Part shown: positions 30,565-38,209 of the stretch, piece after piece | How the letters are laid out: each line of letters opens with the position of its first letter | How positions within the stretch are numbered: position 1 is the first letter of the stretch | Source of the DNA: Candidatus Heimdallarchaeota archaeon | GTDB lineage: Archaea; Asgardarchaeota; Heimdallarchaeia; Hodarchaeales; Hodarchaeaceae | Length of the DNA stretch: 64,000 bases | Direction: 5' to 3' | Assembly (NCBI GenBank): GCA_011364965.1 | Contig: RDOB01000003.1 | Span: 208,930 to 272,929, forward strand | Notes under the pieces: generated by a model | What the model was told of the DNA's origin: nothing | The model's database searches: none | The model's input: the letters and a program-made list of their open reading frames with translations, nothing else | Position numbers and translations under genes: made by a program

Positions 30565-31011
30565 ATGGACATTTTTGTACTGAAATCTAAAGCTAAGAAT
30601 AAGCGTGAAATAGTACATGAATTATTTTCATTACTCTTTGAAAGTGGATATGTAAAGGAAACCTATGAAGAGGCAATTCATAAGCGCGAACTTGAATTTC
30701 CAACAGCTTTAGAGCTTCAGGGATCATTTAACGTTGCAATTCCGCATGCAGAGACGGAATACGTTAACAAACCAGCTATCGCATTTGGAATCCTAGAGAA
30801 TTCGATAGAATGGGAAAGCATGGAAGACCCCGATGTATTAATCCCCGTACATCTAGTGTTTTTGCTAGCAATTAAAGTTCCTGAACTTGTTGTACCCAAT
30901 CTTAAGGCTTTGTCAGATAAGATTTTCAGTAAACCAGATATTGTTGCTGAATTAAGGAATTCAAACGATTTTGACCGAACAAGAAAAACTCTTGTAGGTT
31001 TATTAACTTAA
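30565..31011 (+). CDS. PTS EIIA component (Gat/Fru-Ntr type)
   Basis: REXXFPT motif and VAIPHAE containing the phospho-acceptor His. Confidence 0.92.
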   Translation: MDIFVLKSKAKNKREIVHELFSLLFESGYVKETYEEAIHKRELEFPTALELQGSFNVAIPHAETEYVNKPAIAFGILENSIEWESMEDPDVLIPVHLVFLLAIKVPELVVPNLKALSDKIFSKPDIVAELRNSNDFDRTRKTLVGLLT

Positions 31012-31045
31012 AAACCATCAAAGAAAAAAGATTGGAGTCATAATC

Positions 31046-31318
31046 ATGCCTAAGGTTCAATTCACTGCGATTTTAAAAAACCGAGTAGGGTTACACGCGC
31101 GACCTGCCGCGCTTTTCGTTAGAACCTCCAAAAAGTATCAATGTGAAATTTTTGTAGAAAAAGAGGGCAACAGGGTTGACGCAAAAAAAATCCTGGGGGT
31201 TCTAGGGCTAGGAGCAAATAAAGACGACAAAATAACAGTCTATCTCGATGGACAAGATGCATTAGATGCCAAAGAAGTTCTACTCGAGATGATCGAAAAC
31301 AAATTTGGCGAAGAATGA
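31046..31318 (+). CDS. ptsH: Phosphocarrier protein HPr
   Basis: GLHARPAALFV His15 motif. Confidence 0.96.
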   Translation: MPKVQFTAILKNRVGLHARPAALFVRTSKKYQCEIFVEKEGNRVDAKKILGVLGLGANKDDKITVYLDGQDALDAKEVLLEMIENKFGEE

Positions 31319-36083: not shown

Positions 36084-36410
36084 TCATTCTCCCTGTAGAA
36101 CATTCAATATATCTTGTTCTAATTGCTCTTTATTCATACCAGAAAGAAATGGAATCGCATTAAGAATCGGAACGCCATTGATTGTCCTTTTTCCATCCTC
36201 TGTTGTTTCCCCAGAGACCTTGGTGCTAGATACTATAAGATCATATTTTTGAAAATTGGTTTTGGACTTTACCTCAAACGATTTACATTGATTTACATCA
36301 GCTGGGATTTTGTTCGCTTTACATAATTCTTTAACTTTTGTTGCGACAACAGTAGCAGTTGCGATTGCAGTTCCACAAGCGACCAATATTTTCTTAACCA
36401 TATAGATCAT
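36084..36410 (-). CDS. PTS EIIB component (galactitol family)
   Basis: KKILVACGTAIATAT phospho-Cys loop; PFLSG. Confidence 0.93.
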   Translation of the reverse strand: MIYMVKKILVACGTAIATATVVATKVKELCKANKIPADVNQCKSFEVKSKTNFQKYDLIVSSTKVSGETTEDGKRTINGVPILNAIPFLSGMNKEQLEQDILNVLQGE

Positions 36411-36631
36411 TCCTCTTTATCGACTCTTTCATTCACGCATTCTTTGGAATAAATTAGTCCTTTTAATAACTATCAATGAAATATTCTGATCCAGTTTAGA
36501 CAAATATATTATTTTACTATAAAAAATATCCGTAACAAAAATTTGAATAGTTCTGCAGACTTCTCTAAACTTGGCTAGAAGAATTAAAAAAAAAGAGGGG
36601 AGGGGGAGCGTTTTTACGCTTGGATCAATTT

Positions 36632-38209
36632 TCAGGTGTGGATCTTTTCCTCAGAAATTCGTGTAGGTTCGTCTTTAAGCTTGAGCCAAAGAAGGATGTA
36701 ACCAATCCACCATAAAATATCTATGGCAAACCAAACGATATACCCACTTGAAGTAAAGACGTCAGTCCAAGCAGACATCTGGAAGAGTGGGAATATAAGA
36801 AGAATCAGCATCCAATGAACACTGTTGCTACCCGCATCTAACGAAGTGATTGTTAAACCAGTTTCGCCAAAGTAGAAACCAGTTAGGTCGAAACCAGCAA
36901 TTCCTCCGGCTGCGGTCATCAATGGGGCCATGATACCTGCAGTATACAAAATAACTATCAATTGTATAGTGCCTGAAATGACTCCACGAACGATATTTCC
37001 TTTGGATGGCATGACAGCAAGAACCGAGTAGAAAACCATACCAGCTAAATCGGCATAGGGCAAAACTATGATTCCGAATGGTGCTGGAAGCAGACTAAAG
37101 ATGACAGCCAACAAAATCGATATTGGAATCATAAGAAGAGCAACAGCAATAACAGCTGGATACCCAACAATGATGGCCATATCCATTCCAATAATAAACT
37201 CACGGCCAGGATATTTTTGAGTGATATAGTCTCGAATACCCTCGGAGAGAGGAATCAATCCTTCCATCAAAACAGCAACCATCTTAGGGATCAAATACAT
37301 AACAGCTGCGGAAGTCATTGCTACATTAGCAATTATGACTAAGGTATCCCAGAAAGTTGCGAAATCCAATAATCCGGGAAAATAACCTAAAAACCCAATG
37401 AGACCTCCAATGACAAGTCCAATGAAGATAGGTTCACCAATGAGACCCAATCTCTCTTGAACTGTTTCTGGATCAGCTTTTACGTCTCCAAGTCCAGGAA
37501 TCTTTTTGATAACTTTATCAATTCCAAAGGCGTATGGAGCCATCATAGCATTCCCGTGTGGTAACGAAATTCCTGGAAGATTAAAGTTCTCAGGATCAGC
37601 CATACATGGAGCAATCCAATCTGAGATTTTATATGCCATTATACAATGTATAATCGCAAAAACCATTGCCAAGAAGTAAGCCATTAGCTCACCCATGTGA
37701 GGTTGGACTACCACATATGTTAAGGCTGCTGTAAAACCAAAAGCCCAGTAGTTCCACAAGTCTACATCTAGAGTCTTGGTACCTAAGGGAATTGCTTTTC
37801 CAGCAATATTTAGAGTTCTATTCCCTAGTGCTAACATGATAAGGTTCACAAGGAAACATACGATGATAACTCCAAAAGCTGTCGGCATAGCCCACGTAAT
37901 ACTGCTCGCTAAACCCCAACCAGCATCAATAGCTGTTAAGGTAACACCTGTTTGTTCCACGAACGCTGCAGTGGCTGGACCAATCGCACCCATGAAAACA
38001 TCAAATGCGAAAGTGAAAATCCCAATGAAACCAATTCCAATAAGAATTCCACTACGGAGTGACTTTGAAAATCCCTGTCTAAAGATAAGACCAAGGATTA
38101 AGATAATAATTGGCATGAAAATAACTGGACCAGCAGCAAAAAGGAAATTGATCGGGCCACTAATCAGATTGTTCAGAGCATCAAACAATTCTGCTTGCAT
38201 TACTACCAA
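36632..38209 (-). CDS. PTS EIIC permease (GatC family)
   Basis: IGIGFIGI, IDAGW, TKTLDVDLWNYW, PGISLPHG, PKMVAVLMEGLIPLSE, IGMD, LPYADLA. Confidence 0.94.
   Translation of the reverse strand: MVVMQAELFDALNNLISGPINFLFAAGPVIFMPIIILILGLIFRQGFSKSLRSGILIGIGFIGIFTFAFDVFMGAIGPATAAFVEQTGVTLTAIDAGWGLASSITWAMPTAFGVIIVCFLVNLIMLALGNRTLNIAGKAIPLGTKTLDVDLWNYWAFGFTAALTYVVVQPHMGELMAYFLAMVFAIIHCIMAYKISDWIAPCMADPENFNLPGISLPHGNAMMAPYAFGIDKVIKKIPGLGDVKADPETVQERLGLIGEPIFIGLVIGGLIGFLGYFPGLLDFATFWDTLVIIANVAMTSAAVMYLIPKMVAVLMEGLIPLSEGIRDYITQKYPGREFIIGMDMAIIVGYPAVIAVALLMIPISILLAVIFSLLPAPFGIIVLPYADLAGMVFYSVLAVMPSKGNIVRGVISGTIQLIVILYTAGIMAPLMTAAGGIAGFDLTGFYFGETGLTITSLDAGSNSVHWMLILLIFPLFQMSAWTDVFTSSGYIVWFAIDILWWIGYILLWLKLKDEPTRISEEKIHT

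Follow-up and report, generated by a model that had tools for sequence, protein, structure and literature searches.

The phosphoenolpyruvate (PEP):sugar phosphotransferase system (PTS) is regarded as almost wholly bacterial, and the Hodarchaeales are archaea that are often placed nearest to the eukaryotes. A locus in a metagenome-assembled genome (MAG) of Candidatus Heimdallarchaeota archaeon (GCA_011364965.1) brings the two together and raises the question of whether an archaeon of this group encodes a genuine PTS, how it would have obtained it, and for what it would use it. The window analyzed here is a stretch of 64,000 nucleotides (positions 208930-272929 of the 632-kb contig RDOB01000003.1), and positions below are those of the window unless another locus is named. 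An original prediction, made from the DNA letters alone, had placed a complete PTS at 30565-38209. We think it likely that these genes constitute a genuine, functional Gat-family PTS of a Hodarchaeales archaeon, which would have entered this lineage as a cassette, descended vertically under archaeal promoters, and been lost by some relatives.

A complete set of PTS proteins

The five PTS proteins are encoded as follows.

30565-31011, plus strand: EIIA (PTS_EIIA_2, Pfam 98.5 bits), acceptor His61 within NVAIPHAE
31046-31318, plus strand: HPr (Pfam 87.6 bits), acceptor His17 in GLHARP, Lys at the position of the Bacillus-type Ser46
31315-33063, plus strand: enzyme I (EI; PF05524, PF00391, and PF02896), with the His of GGPTSHVAII and the Cys of GICGE
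36084-36410, minus strand: EIIB of the Gat type (PTS_IIB, 49 bits), acceptor Cys12 in LVACGTA
36632-38209, minus strand: EIIC of the Gat family (EIIC-GAT PF03611, 205.5 bits)

All five proteins that had been proposed were thus recovered by Pfam, and EI and HPr also lie well above the cut-offs of TIGR01417 (609 bits, cut-off 341.7) and TIGR01003 (86 bits, cut-off 47.9), respectively. The four phospho-acceptor motifs that had been called intact (TSH, LHAR, IPH, and ACG) are all present in the translations together with the GICGE motif of EI; that of HPr reads VGLHARPA, and EIIA and EIIB belong to the acceptor families PF00359, with AIPH, and PF02302, with VACGT. Alignments demonstrate that the acceptor motifs, including GLHARP of HPr, are retained among the orthologs of sister genomes and are identical where the genes are full-length. 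Alignment to HPr proteins of the Bacillus group places a lysine at the regulatory Ser46, and thus control of the HprK type is not expected. The likely start of EI is at 31330, a few codons inside its longest open reading frame (ORF), and that of EIIC is the ATG at 38200, likewise inside the longest ORF; at its C-terminus EIIC continues for ~80 residues past the end of the Pfam model.

The genes form two convergent runs, with EIIA, HPr, and EI on the plus strand and EIIC, EIIB, a class II aldolase-fold enzyme, a dehydrogenase, and a 356-residue protein on the minus strand. The MAG holds single copies of EI, HPr, EIIA_2, and EIIC-GAT, and no Glc-type or Man-type EIIC was found in its 2.97 Mb, an absence that is not proof in a genome estimated to be 87% complete. 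An EIIC-GAT permease with a Gat-type EIIB and an EIIA_2 as partners places the system in the Gat family (TC 4.A.5), and the best match of EIIB is to the galactitol IIB model (72 bits, versus 33 bits for ascorbate IIB). Gene content and motifs confirm that these proteins form a PEP:carbohydrate phosphotransferase system, for which both phosphotransfer and transport are predicted. In the proposed mechanism, PEP would phosphorylate the histidine of EI, the phosphate would be relayed to His17 of HPr, His61 of EIIA, and Cys12 of EIIB, and EIIC would import a substrate that becomes phosphorylated on entry.

Archaeal identity of the host

The MAG consists of 16 contigs of uniform GC content (~0.35), with an estimated contamination of 3%. 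The 632-kb contig that carries the PTS also encodes a eukaryote-like actin (443 bits against Pfam Actin) and, 19 kb from the PTS, a small GTPase of the Ras family (143 bits; 56927-57463 of the window). The archaeal/eukaryotic ribosomal protein S3Ae is encoded on another contig. The EI proteins of same-genus genomes are identical to NCBI entries labeled Candidatus Hodarchaeota archaeon or Candidatus Heimdallarchaeota archaeon, and proteins of sister species bear the NCBI labels Hodarchaeota, Hodarchaeales, or Heimdallarchaeota. No 16S rRNA was found in the MAG, and no Rfam family scored in the window. Based on actin, the Ras GTPase, S3Ae, and the labeled kin proteins, the host belongs to the Asgard archaea and, within them, to the Hodarchaeales/Heimdallarchaeia group, which agrees with the original prediction.

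The composition of the cluster is typical of this genome. The tetranucleotide distance of 30565-38209 falls at the 70th percentile among 374 equal-sized genome windows, and the GC content at third codon positions (GC3) of the genes is within the genome range, HPr and EIIC being high at ~2.5-3 standard deviations above the genome mean. The genes interleaved with the PTS had been described as AT-rich, which does not hold, as their GC content of 0.35-0.39 compares with a genome mean of ~0.35. A near-identical stretch is present in 18 DNA sequencing runs from seven studies, and the habitat labels of further runs (soil, estuary) are given no weight here. In a marine-sediment run 26000-44000 lies on a single 42.7-kb contig with an even depth of 19.6. 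Five contigs of a mangrove run together span 26000-42540 at a depth of 7.2-8.1 and pass both ends of the cluster unbroken; each of these runs may be the source sample, so the depth evidence is not independent. The check for a bacterial chimera that had been suggested for 26-44 kb therefore reveals no break in depth or composition, and it is well supported that the DNA of the cluster is archaeal.

Synteny and loss within the genus

The PTS genes are part of a larger island that includes the following genes.

28854-29672, minus strand: BtpA/SgcQ-family protein at the island edge (TIGR00259, 255.9 bits, cut-off 153.4)
29924-30349, plus strand: YjbQ/UPF0047 protein (PF01894, 115.9 bits; TIGR00149, 118 bits)
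33076-34146, minus strand: two-helix membrane protein of 356 residues, lineage-specific, last gene of the minus-strand run
34197-35273, minus strand: Zn-dependent medium-chain dehydrogenase of the polyol/threonine dehydrogenase family, 26% identical to E. coli GatD
35270-35896, minus strand: class II aldolase-fold enzyme (FucA/AraD/OtnC-like; PF00596, 161.9 bits)
38491-39159, minus strand: DeoC, deoxyribose-phosphate aldolase (TIGR00126, 240.9 bits, cut-off 117.3)
39174-40412, minus strand: DegT/DnrJ-family aminotransferase, first gene of the island (PF01041, 275 bits)

Comparative synteny is the strongest evidence for the archaeal origin of this stretch. The cluster is common to at least five sister species (genomes G073, G057, G061, G069, and G070). 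In the first three the order is AbrB-PhoU, DegT, DeoC, EIIC, EIIB, aldolase, dehydrogenase, the membrane protein, EI, HPr, EIIA, YjbQ, and BtpA. G069 has the same order minus DeoC, with AbrB-PhoU unmatched at the contig end, and G070 contains a cluster fragment only. Most proteins are 70-80% identical between sister species (65-82% when EIIC, EIIB, HPr, the dehydrogenase, and the flanking genes are considered), and the membrane protein is 46-61% identical. EIIC is the best conserved protein, with 75-78% identity in sister genomes and up to 84% among database relatives.

Loss footprints are evident in other relatives. The PTS is deleted in G063, where AbrB-PhoU, residues 1-55 of DegT, YjbQ, and BtpA remain, and the 55-residue DegT stub is a deletion scar. 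AbrB-PhoU directly adjoins BtpA in G060. In G058 (locus L163, contig C61, 5922-11417), AbrB-PhoU, DegT, DeoC, EIIC, and an EIIB with its cysteine intact are present, with no aldolase, dehydrogenase, HPr, or EIIA after EIIB and no EI in this 93%-complete genome. G062 has kept the island BtpA, and the other cluster genes are not beside it. The deletable island thus extends to DeoC and DegT, two genes that lie between the PTS and AbrB-PhoU. The original prediction had put the PTS next to an archaeal-type AbrB-PhoU regulator. The two are not directly adjacent, and since the gene stays in place, with 81% identity, where the PTS is missing, we reject it as a PTS regulator. AbrB-PhoU is a conserved flank. 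The complete cluster, its archaeal flanks, and the synteny among sister species do bear out the prediction of a self-contained and assimilated PTS, and together with the footprints they suggest that the island is old in this lineage, has been vertically inherited, and is now decaying within the genus.

Origin and distribution among Asgard archaea

The Hodarchaeales sequences of this group are monophyletic in the trees of both EI (n = 18) and EIIC (n = 17), each with 100% support in the Shimodaira-Hasegawa-like approximate likelihood ratio test (SH-aLRT). In the EI tree this clade diverges from the same polytomy as Bacillota and further archaeal clades, and the EIIC tree, which comes with a warning, joins long branches (Njordarchaeales and a Desulfitobacteriaceae sequence). 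When EI was used as a query across species genomes, the matches were mostly Bacillota loci, with one Bathyarchaeota MAG and no Asgard-named genome. The closest EIIC outside the clade (P0139) is 50% identical, and every bacterial EIIC is at most 40% identical. P0139 is encoded on a 78-kb metagenome contig (L164), where the gene order EIIA, EIIC, EIIB, class II aldolase, Zn-dehydrogenase matches that of the window. Positions 1-16552 of L164 (GC 0.42) contain two adjacent Gat-family EII sets. The second resembles the Sgc type and is accompanied by an M42 peptidase, an epimerase, BtpA, an amidohydrolase, and YjbQ. All named relatives of one L164 dehydrogenase are archaeal, and thus this sister lineage is probably archaeal as well. 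A bacterial contig (L168) holds HPr, EIIB, EI, EIIA, EIIC, and a Zn-dehydrogenase together, and such self-contained bacterial cassettes make transfer as a single block plausible. We propose that a self-contained cassette of ultimately bacterial origin entered the ancestor of the species group, and that it was subsequently inherited vertically, came under the control of archaeal promoters, and was lost in several relatives.

The searches across Asgard genomes and the phylogenies that the original prediction had called for show that PTS genes are rare and patchy in this phylum. Among 400 species genomes, with EI counted above the curated cut-off, EI is found in 15 and EIIC-GAT in 11. EIIC is present in seven of the 22 genomes of the window genus. 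EI also occurs in six of the seven genomes of one further family (G285-G291), one of which matches an NCBI protein labeled Candidatus Njordarchaeales archaeon. In another family, G007 (L116, contig C15, 7490-15570) encodes a compact set of EIIA_2, EI, HPr, EIIC-GAT, and EIIB between two SIS-domain proteins, and its EI groups with those of the Njordarchaeales. G055, from the class of the window genome, encodes DhaK, DhaL, DhaM (EIIA-man), HPr, and EI consecutively (L111, contig C1, 9099-13285); this set is a PEP-dependent dihydroxyacetone kinase with no permease and not a transporter. In G003 an open frame (L120, contig C241, 9327-10506) matches only the C-terminal, PEP-binding part of EI (model positions 214-564), and the mobile His domain was not seen. 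Genomes labeled Bathyarchaeia, Odinarchaeota, and Thermoprotei contain EI genes as well.

The sets of Njordarchaeales, G007, and G055 resemble that of the window in having EI and HPr, and the first two also have EIIA_2, EIIB, and a PF03611 EIIC. They differ in that their EI proteins are only 35-38% identical to the window EI and form a separate clade, and in that their neighbors are SIS isomerases or a dihydroxyacetone kinase. Matches of the Njordarchaeales EIIC are 35-38% identical, and the EIIC of G007, that of G290, and one of G286 are unmatched at E 1e-8. Together these differences indicate that PTS parts were acquired more than once in Asgard archaea, and the EI trees indicate separate origins of the Hodarchaeales and Njordarchaeales EI.

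Such a route had been said not to be usually credited to Asgard archaea, and in the literature this stands: the one survey devoted to Asgard transporters, which dates from 2021 and covers five genomes, lists no PTS protein (PMC7997004), reviews describe archaeal PTS in haloarchaea only (PMC8100219; PMC2405797), we found no description of a PTS for Asgard archaea, Hodarchaeales, Heimdallarchaeia, Odinarchaeota, or Njordarchaeales, and the main text of recent Hodarchaeales papers does not mention one. In the genomes themselves the system is less exclusive than this implies, as the same cluster is present in at least five sister species, other Asgard sets exist, and the NCBI pipeline already names these PTS proteins in public MAGs. 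The cluster is thus patchy, has no published description that we could find, and is shared among sister species. We regard it as a canonical PTS with some lineage-specific accessories in an under-reported host group, its archaeal and assimilated status being well supported. Since the machinery is canonical and the MAG proteins are automatically annotated, the value of the system lies in its distribution and physiology and not in a new mechanism. A subgroup of Hodarchaeales appears to have retained a complete PEP-driven uptake system over several speciation events, so that reconstructions of the carbon metabolism of these archaea would gain a route by group translocation. It would also be a further case of Hodarchaeales taking up a bacterial-type catabolic module, parallel to the bacterial-type microcompartments reported in this group (PMC12747264). 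Finally, the lack of a PTS in eukaryotes tells little about the possible content of their archaeal relatives.

Substrate and relation to known systems

One of the closest known systems is the galactitol PTS of E. coli, GatABC with GatD and GatYZ. In this system and in that of the window, EIIA, EIIB, and EIIC are separate polypeptides of the same Pfam families with His and Cys acceptors, a Zn-dependent dehydrogenase is encoded beside the permease, and galactitol models are the best NCBIfam matches of the window EIIB and EIIC. Identity is low (~32% for EIIC, 37% for EIIB, and 26% for the dehydrogenase), and the window differs in having EI and HPr inside the cluster, a FucA/AraD-fold enzyme instead of the tagatose-bisphosphate aldolase GatYZ, the C-terminal extra of ~80 residues in EIIC, and TATA-type archaeal promoters. 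None of the galactitol-specific cut-offs is reached (TIGR00827, 313.8 versus 542.2 bits; NF007643, 72.1 versus 95; NF007236, 50.9 versus 139; NF007642 for GatD, 147.5 versus 550), and thus the substrate is not readable from homology.

The sgc operon of E. coli (SgcX, SgcB, SgcC, SgcQ, SgcA, SgcE, and SgcR) also combines a Gat-family EII set with a nearby BtpA/SgcQ-family gene, and the window BtpA is 41% identical to SgcQ. This gene is the only Sgc-type feature of the window cluster, which lacks the M42 peptidase, the ribulose-phosphate epimerase, and the DeoR regulator. Pfam finds neither an M42 peptidase nor an epimerase among the island proteins, and M42 homologs are encoded elsewhere in the genome. 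The identity of the window EIIC to SgcC (33%) is practically the same as that to GatC (32%), and the BtpA copy is kept in relatives that lost the PTS. The fructose PTS of the haloarchaea Haloferax volcanii and Haloarcula marismortui (pNG700) likewise comprises complete bacterial-type EI, HPr, EIIA, EIIB, and EIIC in an archaeon, and was acquired and is used in catabolism (PMC2405797; PMC8100219). That system belongs to another archaeal phylum, has an EIIC of the fructose class and not of the Gat class, is followed by 1-phosphofructokinase and class II fructose-bisphosphate aldolase, and has been characterized by experiment, whereas the window system is known from sequence.

The adjacent Zn-dehydrogenase and aldolase-fold enzyme suggest a polyol or a small acid sugar as the most likely substrate. 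Following uptake, the presumably co-transcribed dehydrogenase would oxidize the hydroxyl adjoining the phosphorylated end, and at the keto group so formed the aldolase-fold enzyme would then break or rearrange a C-C bond, yielding a triose or pentose phosphate that could enter central metabolism. The genes of the two enzymes overlap by 4 bp, the likely start of the aldolase-fold gene being a few codons inside its longest ORF. To our knowledge, all known reactions of the class II aldolase fold use a phosphorylated keto compound. This chemistry and the gene overlap fit a route of PTS phosphorylation, oxidation, and C-C chemistry.

Probable promoters and signs of transcription

Putative regulatory elements were identified at four positions.

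30436-30446, plus strand: TATA-like element TTTTAATAAAT (conserved form TTTTAATAA) before EIIA-HPr-EI, putative promoter
38302-38309, minus strand: TATA box TTTATATA of EIIC, within the block GATAGATTTATATA
38250-38272, strand not assigned: palindrome TTTGAG-N11-CTCAAA, candidate operator between the TATA box and the EIIC start
36586-36594, minus strand: T9 run, possible archaeal terminator 38 nt past the EIIC stop

In an alignment of five genomes the element at 30436-30446 is the sole conserved block of its intergenic region, and in the block before EIIC most columns are identical in all six aligned genomes, its canonical archaeal TATA box being nearly invariant. From this conservation we infer that the cluster is under archaeal TATA-type promoters. 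The palindrome, ~30 nt downstream of the TATA box, is conserved in five genomes, and both of its half-sites are altered in G069. It looks like a putative archaeal repressor site; the pattern has two matches in the window against 0.14 expected. The other match (TTTGAG-N13-CTCAAA, 8480-8504) is inside an FtsX-like ORF at 6818-9256 and may be due to chance.

In two metatranscriptome runs from one study, EIIC (36601-38228) is covered by near-identical contigs and EI (32271-32481) by one. The eight RNA contigs differ from the window by one single-base difference and one single-base deletion. None covers another gene of the 18 kb examined, but as these contigs are of low depth, this does not mean that the other genes are silent. 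The RNA contigs agree with transcription of EIIC and EI and suggest that the system is transcribed in sediments. One of them ends at 36601, near the T9 run, a weak hint only of termination there.

Alternative explanations

Several observations weigh against a functional PTS that was acquired as proposed. EI is only 50-58% identical between sister genomes (L106, L107, L109, and L110), and although its catalytic motifs are kept, such fast divergence could reflect a relaxation of constraint. Within the genus the cluster is undergoing loss or reduction and is hence dispensable, and neither the EI tree nor the EIIC tree singles out the donor lineage. EIIA, EIIB, EIIC, the dehydrogenase, and the aldolase-fold enzyme all score below NCBIfam equivalog or subfamily cut-offs, and the residues of the last are mixed between FucA and AraD types. 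The RNA contigs, which come from one study, have neither strand nor transcript ends, and DNA carry-over could account for them. The fast divergence of EI, the loss or reduction of the cluster in at least three relatives (G058, G060, and G063, with G062 retaining BtpA only), the HPr without its Ser46 regulatory site, and the restriction of EI and HPr in other Asgard genomes to a dihydroxyacetone kinase (G055) would all be expected if the cluster were a relic in decay, or if it served only as a regulatory phosphorelay and imported no substrate. We consider this very improbable given that ten of ten island genes are full-length and stop-free, that the catalytic motifs are identical across sisters with full-length genes, that the EIIC promoter elements are conserved, and that EIIC, for which a regulatory relay has no need, is the best conserved protein and present in RNA libraries. 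It could also be posited that bacterial DNA was misassembled or misbinned onto an archaeal contig, as PTS genes are overwhelmingly bacterial, the estimated contamination is 3%, and the GC3 of HPr and EIIC is raised. This explanation is effectively refuted by the six species-level MAGs that carry the cluster between the same archaeal flanks, the even depth over its borders in two metagenome assemblies (either possibly the source sample), the genome-typical tetranucleotide composition, the actin and Ras GTPase on the same 632-kb contig, and the distance to the closest bacterial EIIC.

The more serious alternative concerns the catabolic route and accepts the archaeal PTS as real. The aldolase-fold enzyme may be a 4-epimerase, converting a pentitol-derived pentulose 5-phosphate to xylulose 5-phosphate, or a decarboxylase, converting a 3-oxo acid 4-phosphate to dihydroxyacetone phosphate and CO2, and not a retro-aldol lyase. 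Its best NCBIfam matches are of these types, although below the cut-offs: 3-oxo-tetronate 4-phosphate decarboxylase (115 bits, cut-off 250) and then subfamilies of L-ribulose-5-phosphate 4-epimerase (106 bits). Its TT.A(E) motif and SSETPMH are AraD-like, and ribulose-phosphate 3-epimerases accompany related sets in L164 and in the sgc operon of E. coli. However, the residue corresponding to Asp76 of AraD is Glu, the C-terminal tail of AraD is missing, the closest solved structures are FucA aldolases, and the cluster contains no pentose-phosphate enzyme. Glu is also found at the AraD Asp120 position. Compared with FucA (E. coli numbering), the Zn ligands His92, His94, and His155 and the Glu73 position are kept, Tyr113 is replaced by Thr, and the NCBIfam models of FucA are below cut-off. 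On this evidence each of the three reaction types may apply, and we consider this alternative, epimerase or decarboxylase, rather improbable. It is less probable still that three further proposals hold jointly, namely that Hodarchaeales and L164 represent a separate archaeal Gat-PTS lineage circulating in sediment archaea; that PTS phosphorylation, oxidation by the Zn-dehydrogenase, and cleavage of a C-C bond, for which a new enzyme of the class II aldolase fold would be responsible, make up an undescribed three-step route for a tetritol, pentitol, or acid sugar; and that the protein at 33076-34146 is a membrane-tethered, lineage-specific sensor with a TrmB/PLD-like domain that acts at the EIIC palindrome.

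Companion and flanking genes

The 356-residue protein always ends the run from EIIC to the dehydrogenase. It belongs to no Pfam, NCBIfam, or protein-atlas family, and a profile search of 1.84 billion representative proteins identified only two full-length clusters. Its structural model (mean predicted local distance difference test score, 69.5) has two confident transmembrane helices and a poor C-terminal half. In a fold search its matches to the PLD fold and TrmBL2 were weak (all E > 0.01); the PLD/TrmB-like reading may serve as a lead, and a role as sensor or regulator is a guess.

DeoC is syntenic in four sister genomes and is not found in G069. An ORF of 365 residues at 26404-27501, outside the island, for which a 7TM-roadblock fusion had been proposed, matches no family. 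YjbQ is co-located with BtpA and syntenic across sister genomes, and on L164 it lies two genes from BtpA, with the amidohydrolase in between. The island copy of BtpA is present in nine of the 22 genus genomes, and most of them encode a second paralog (~30% identity).

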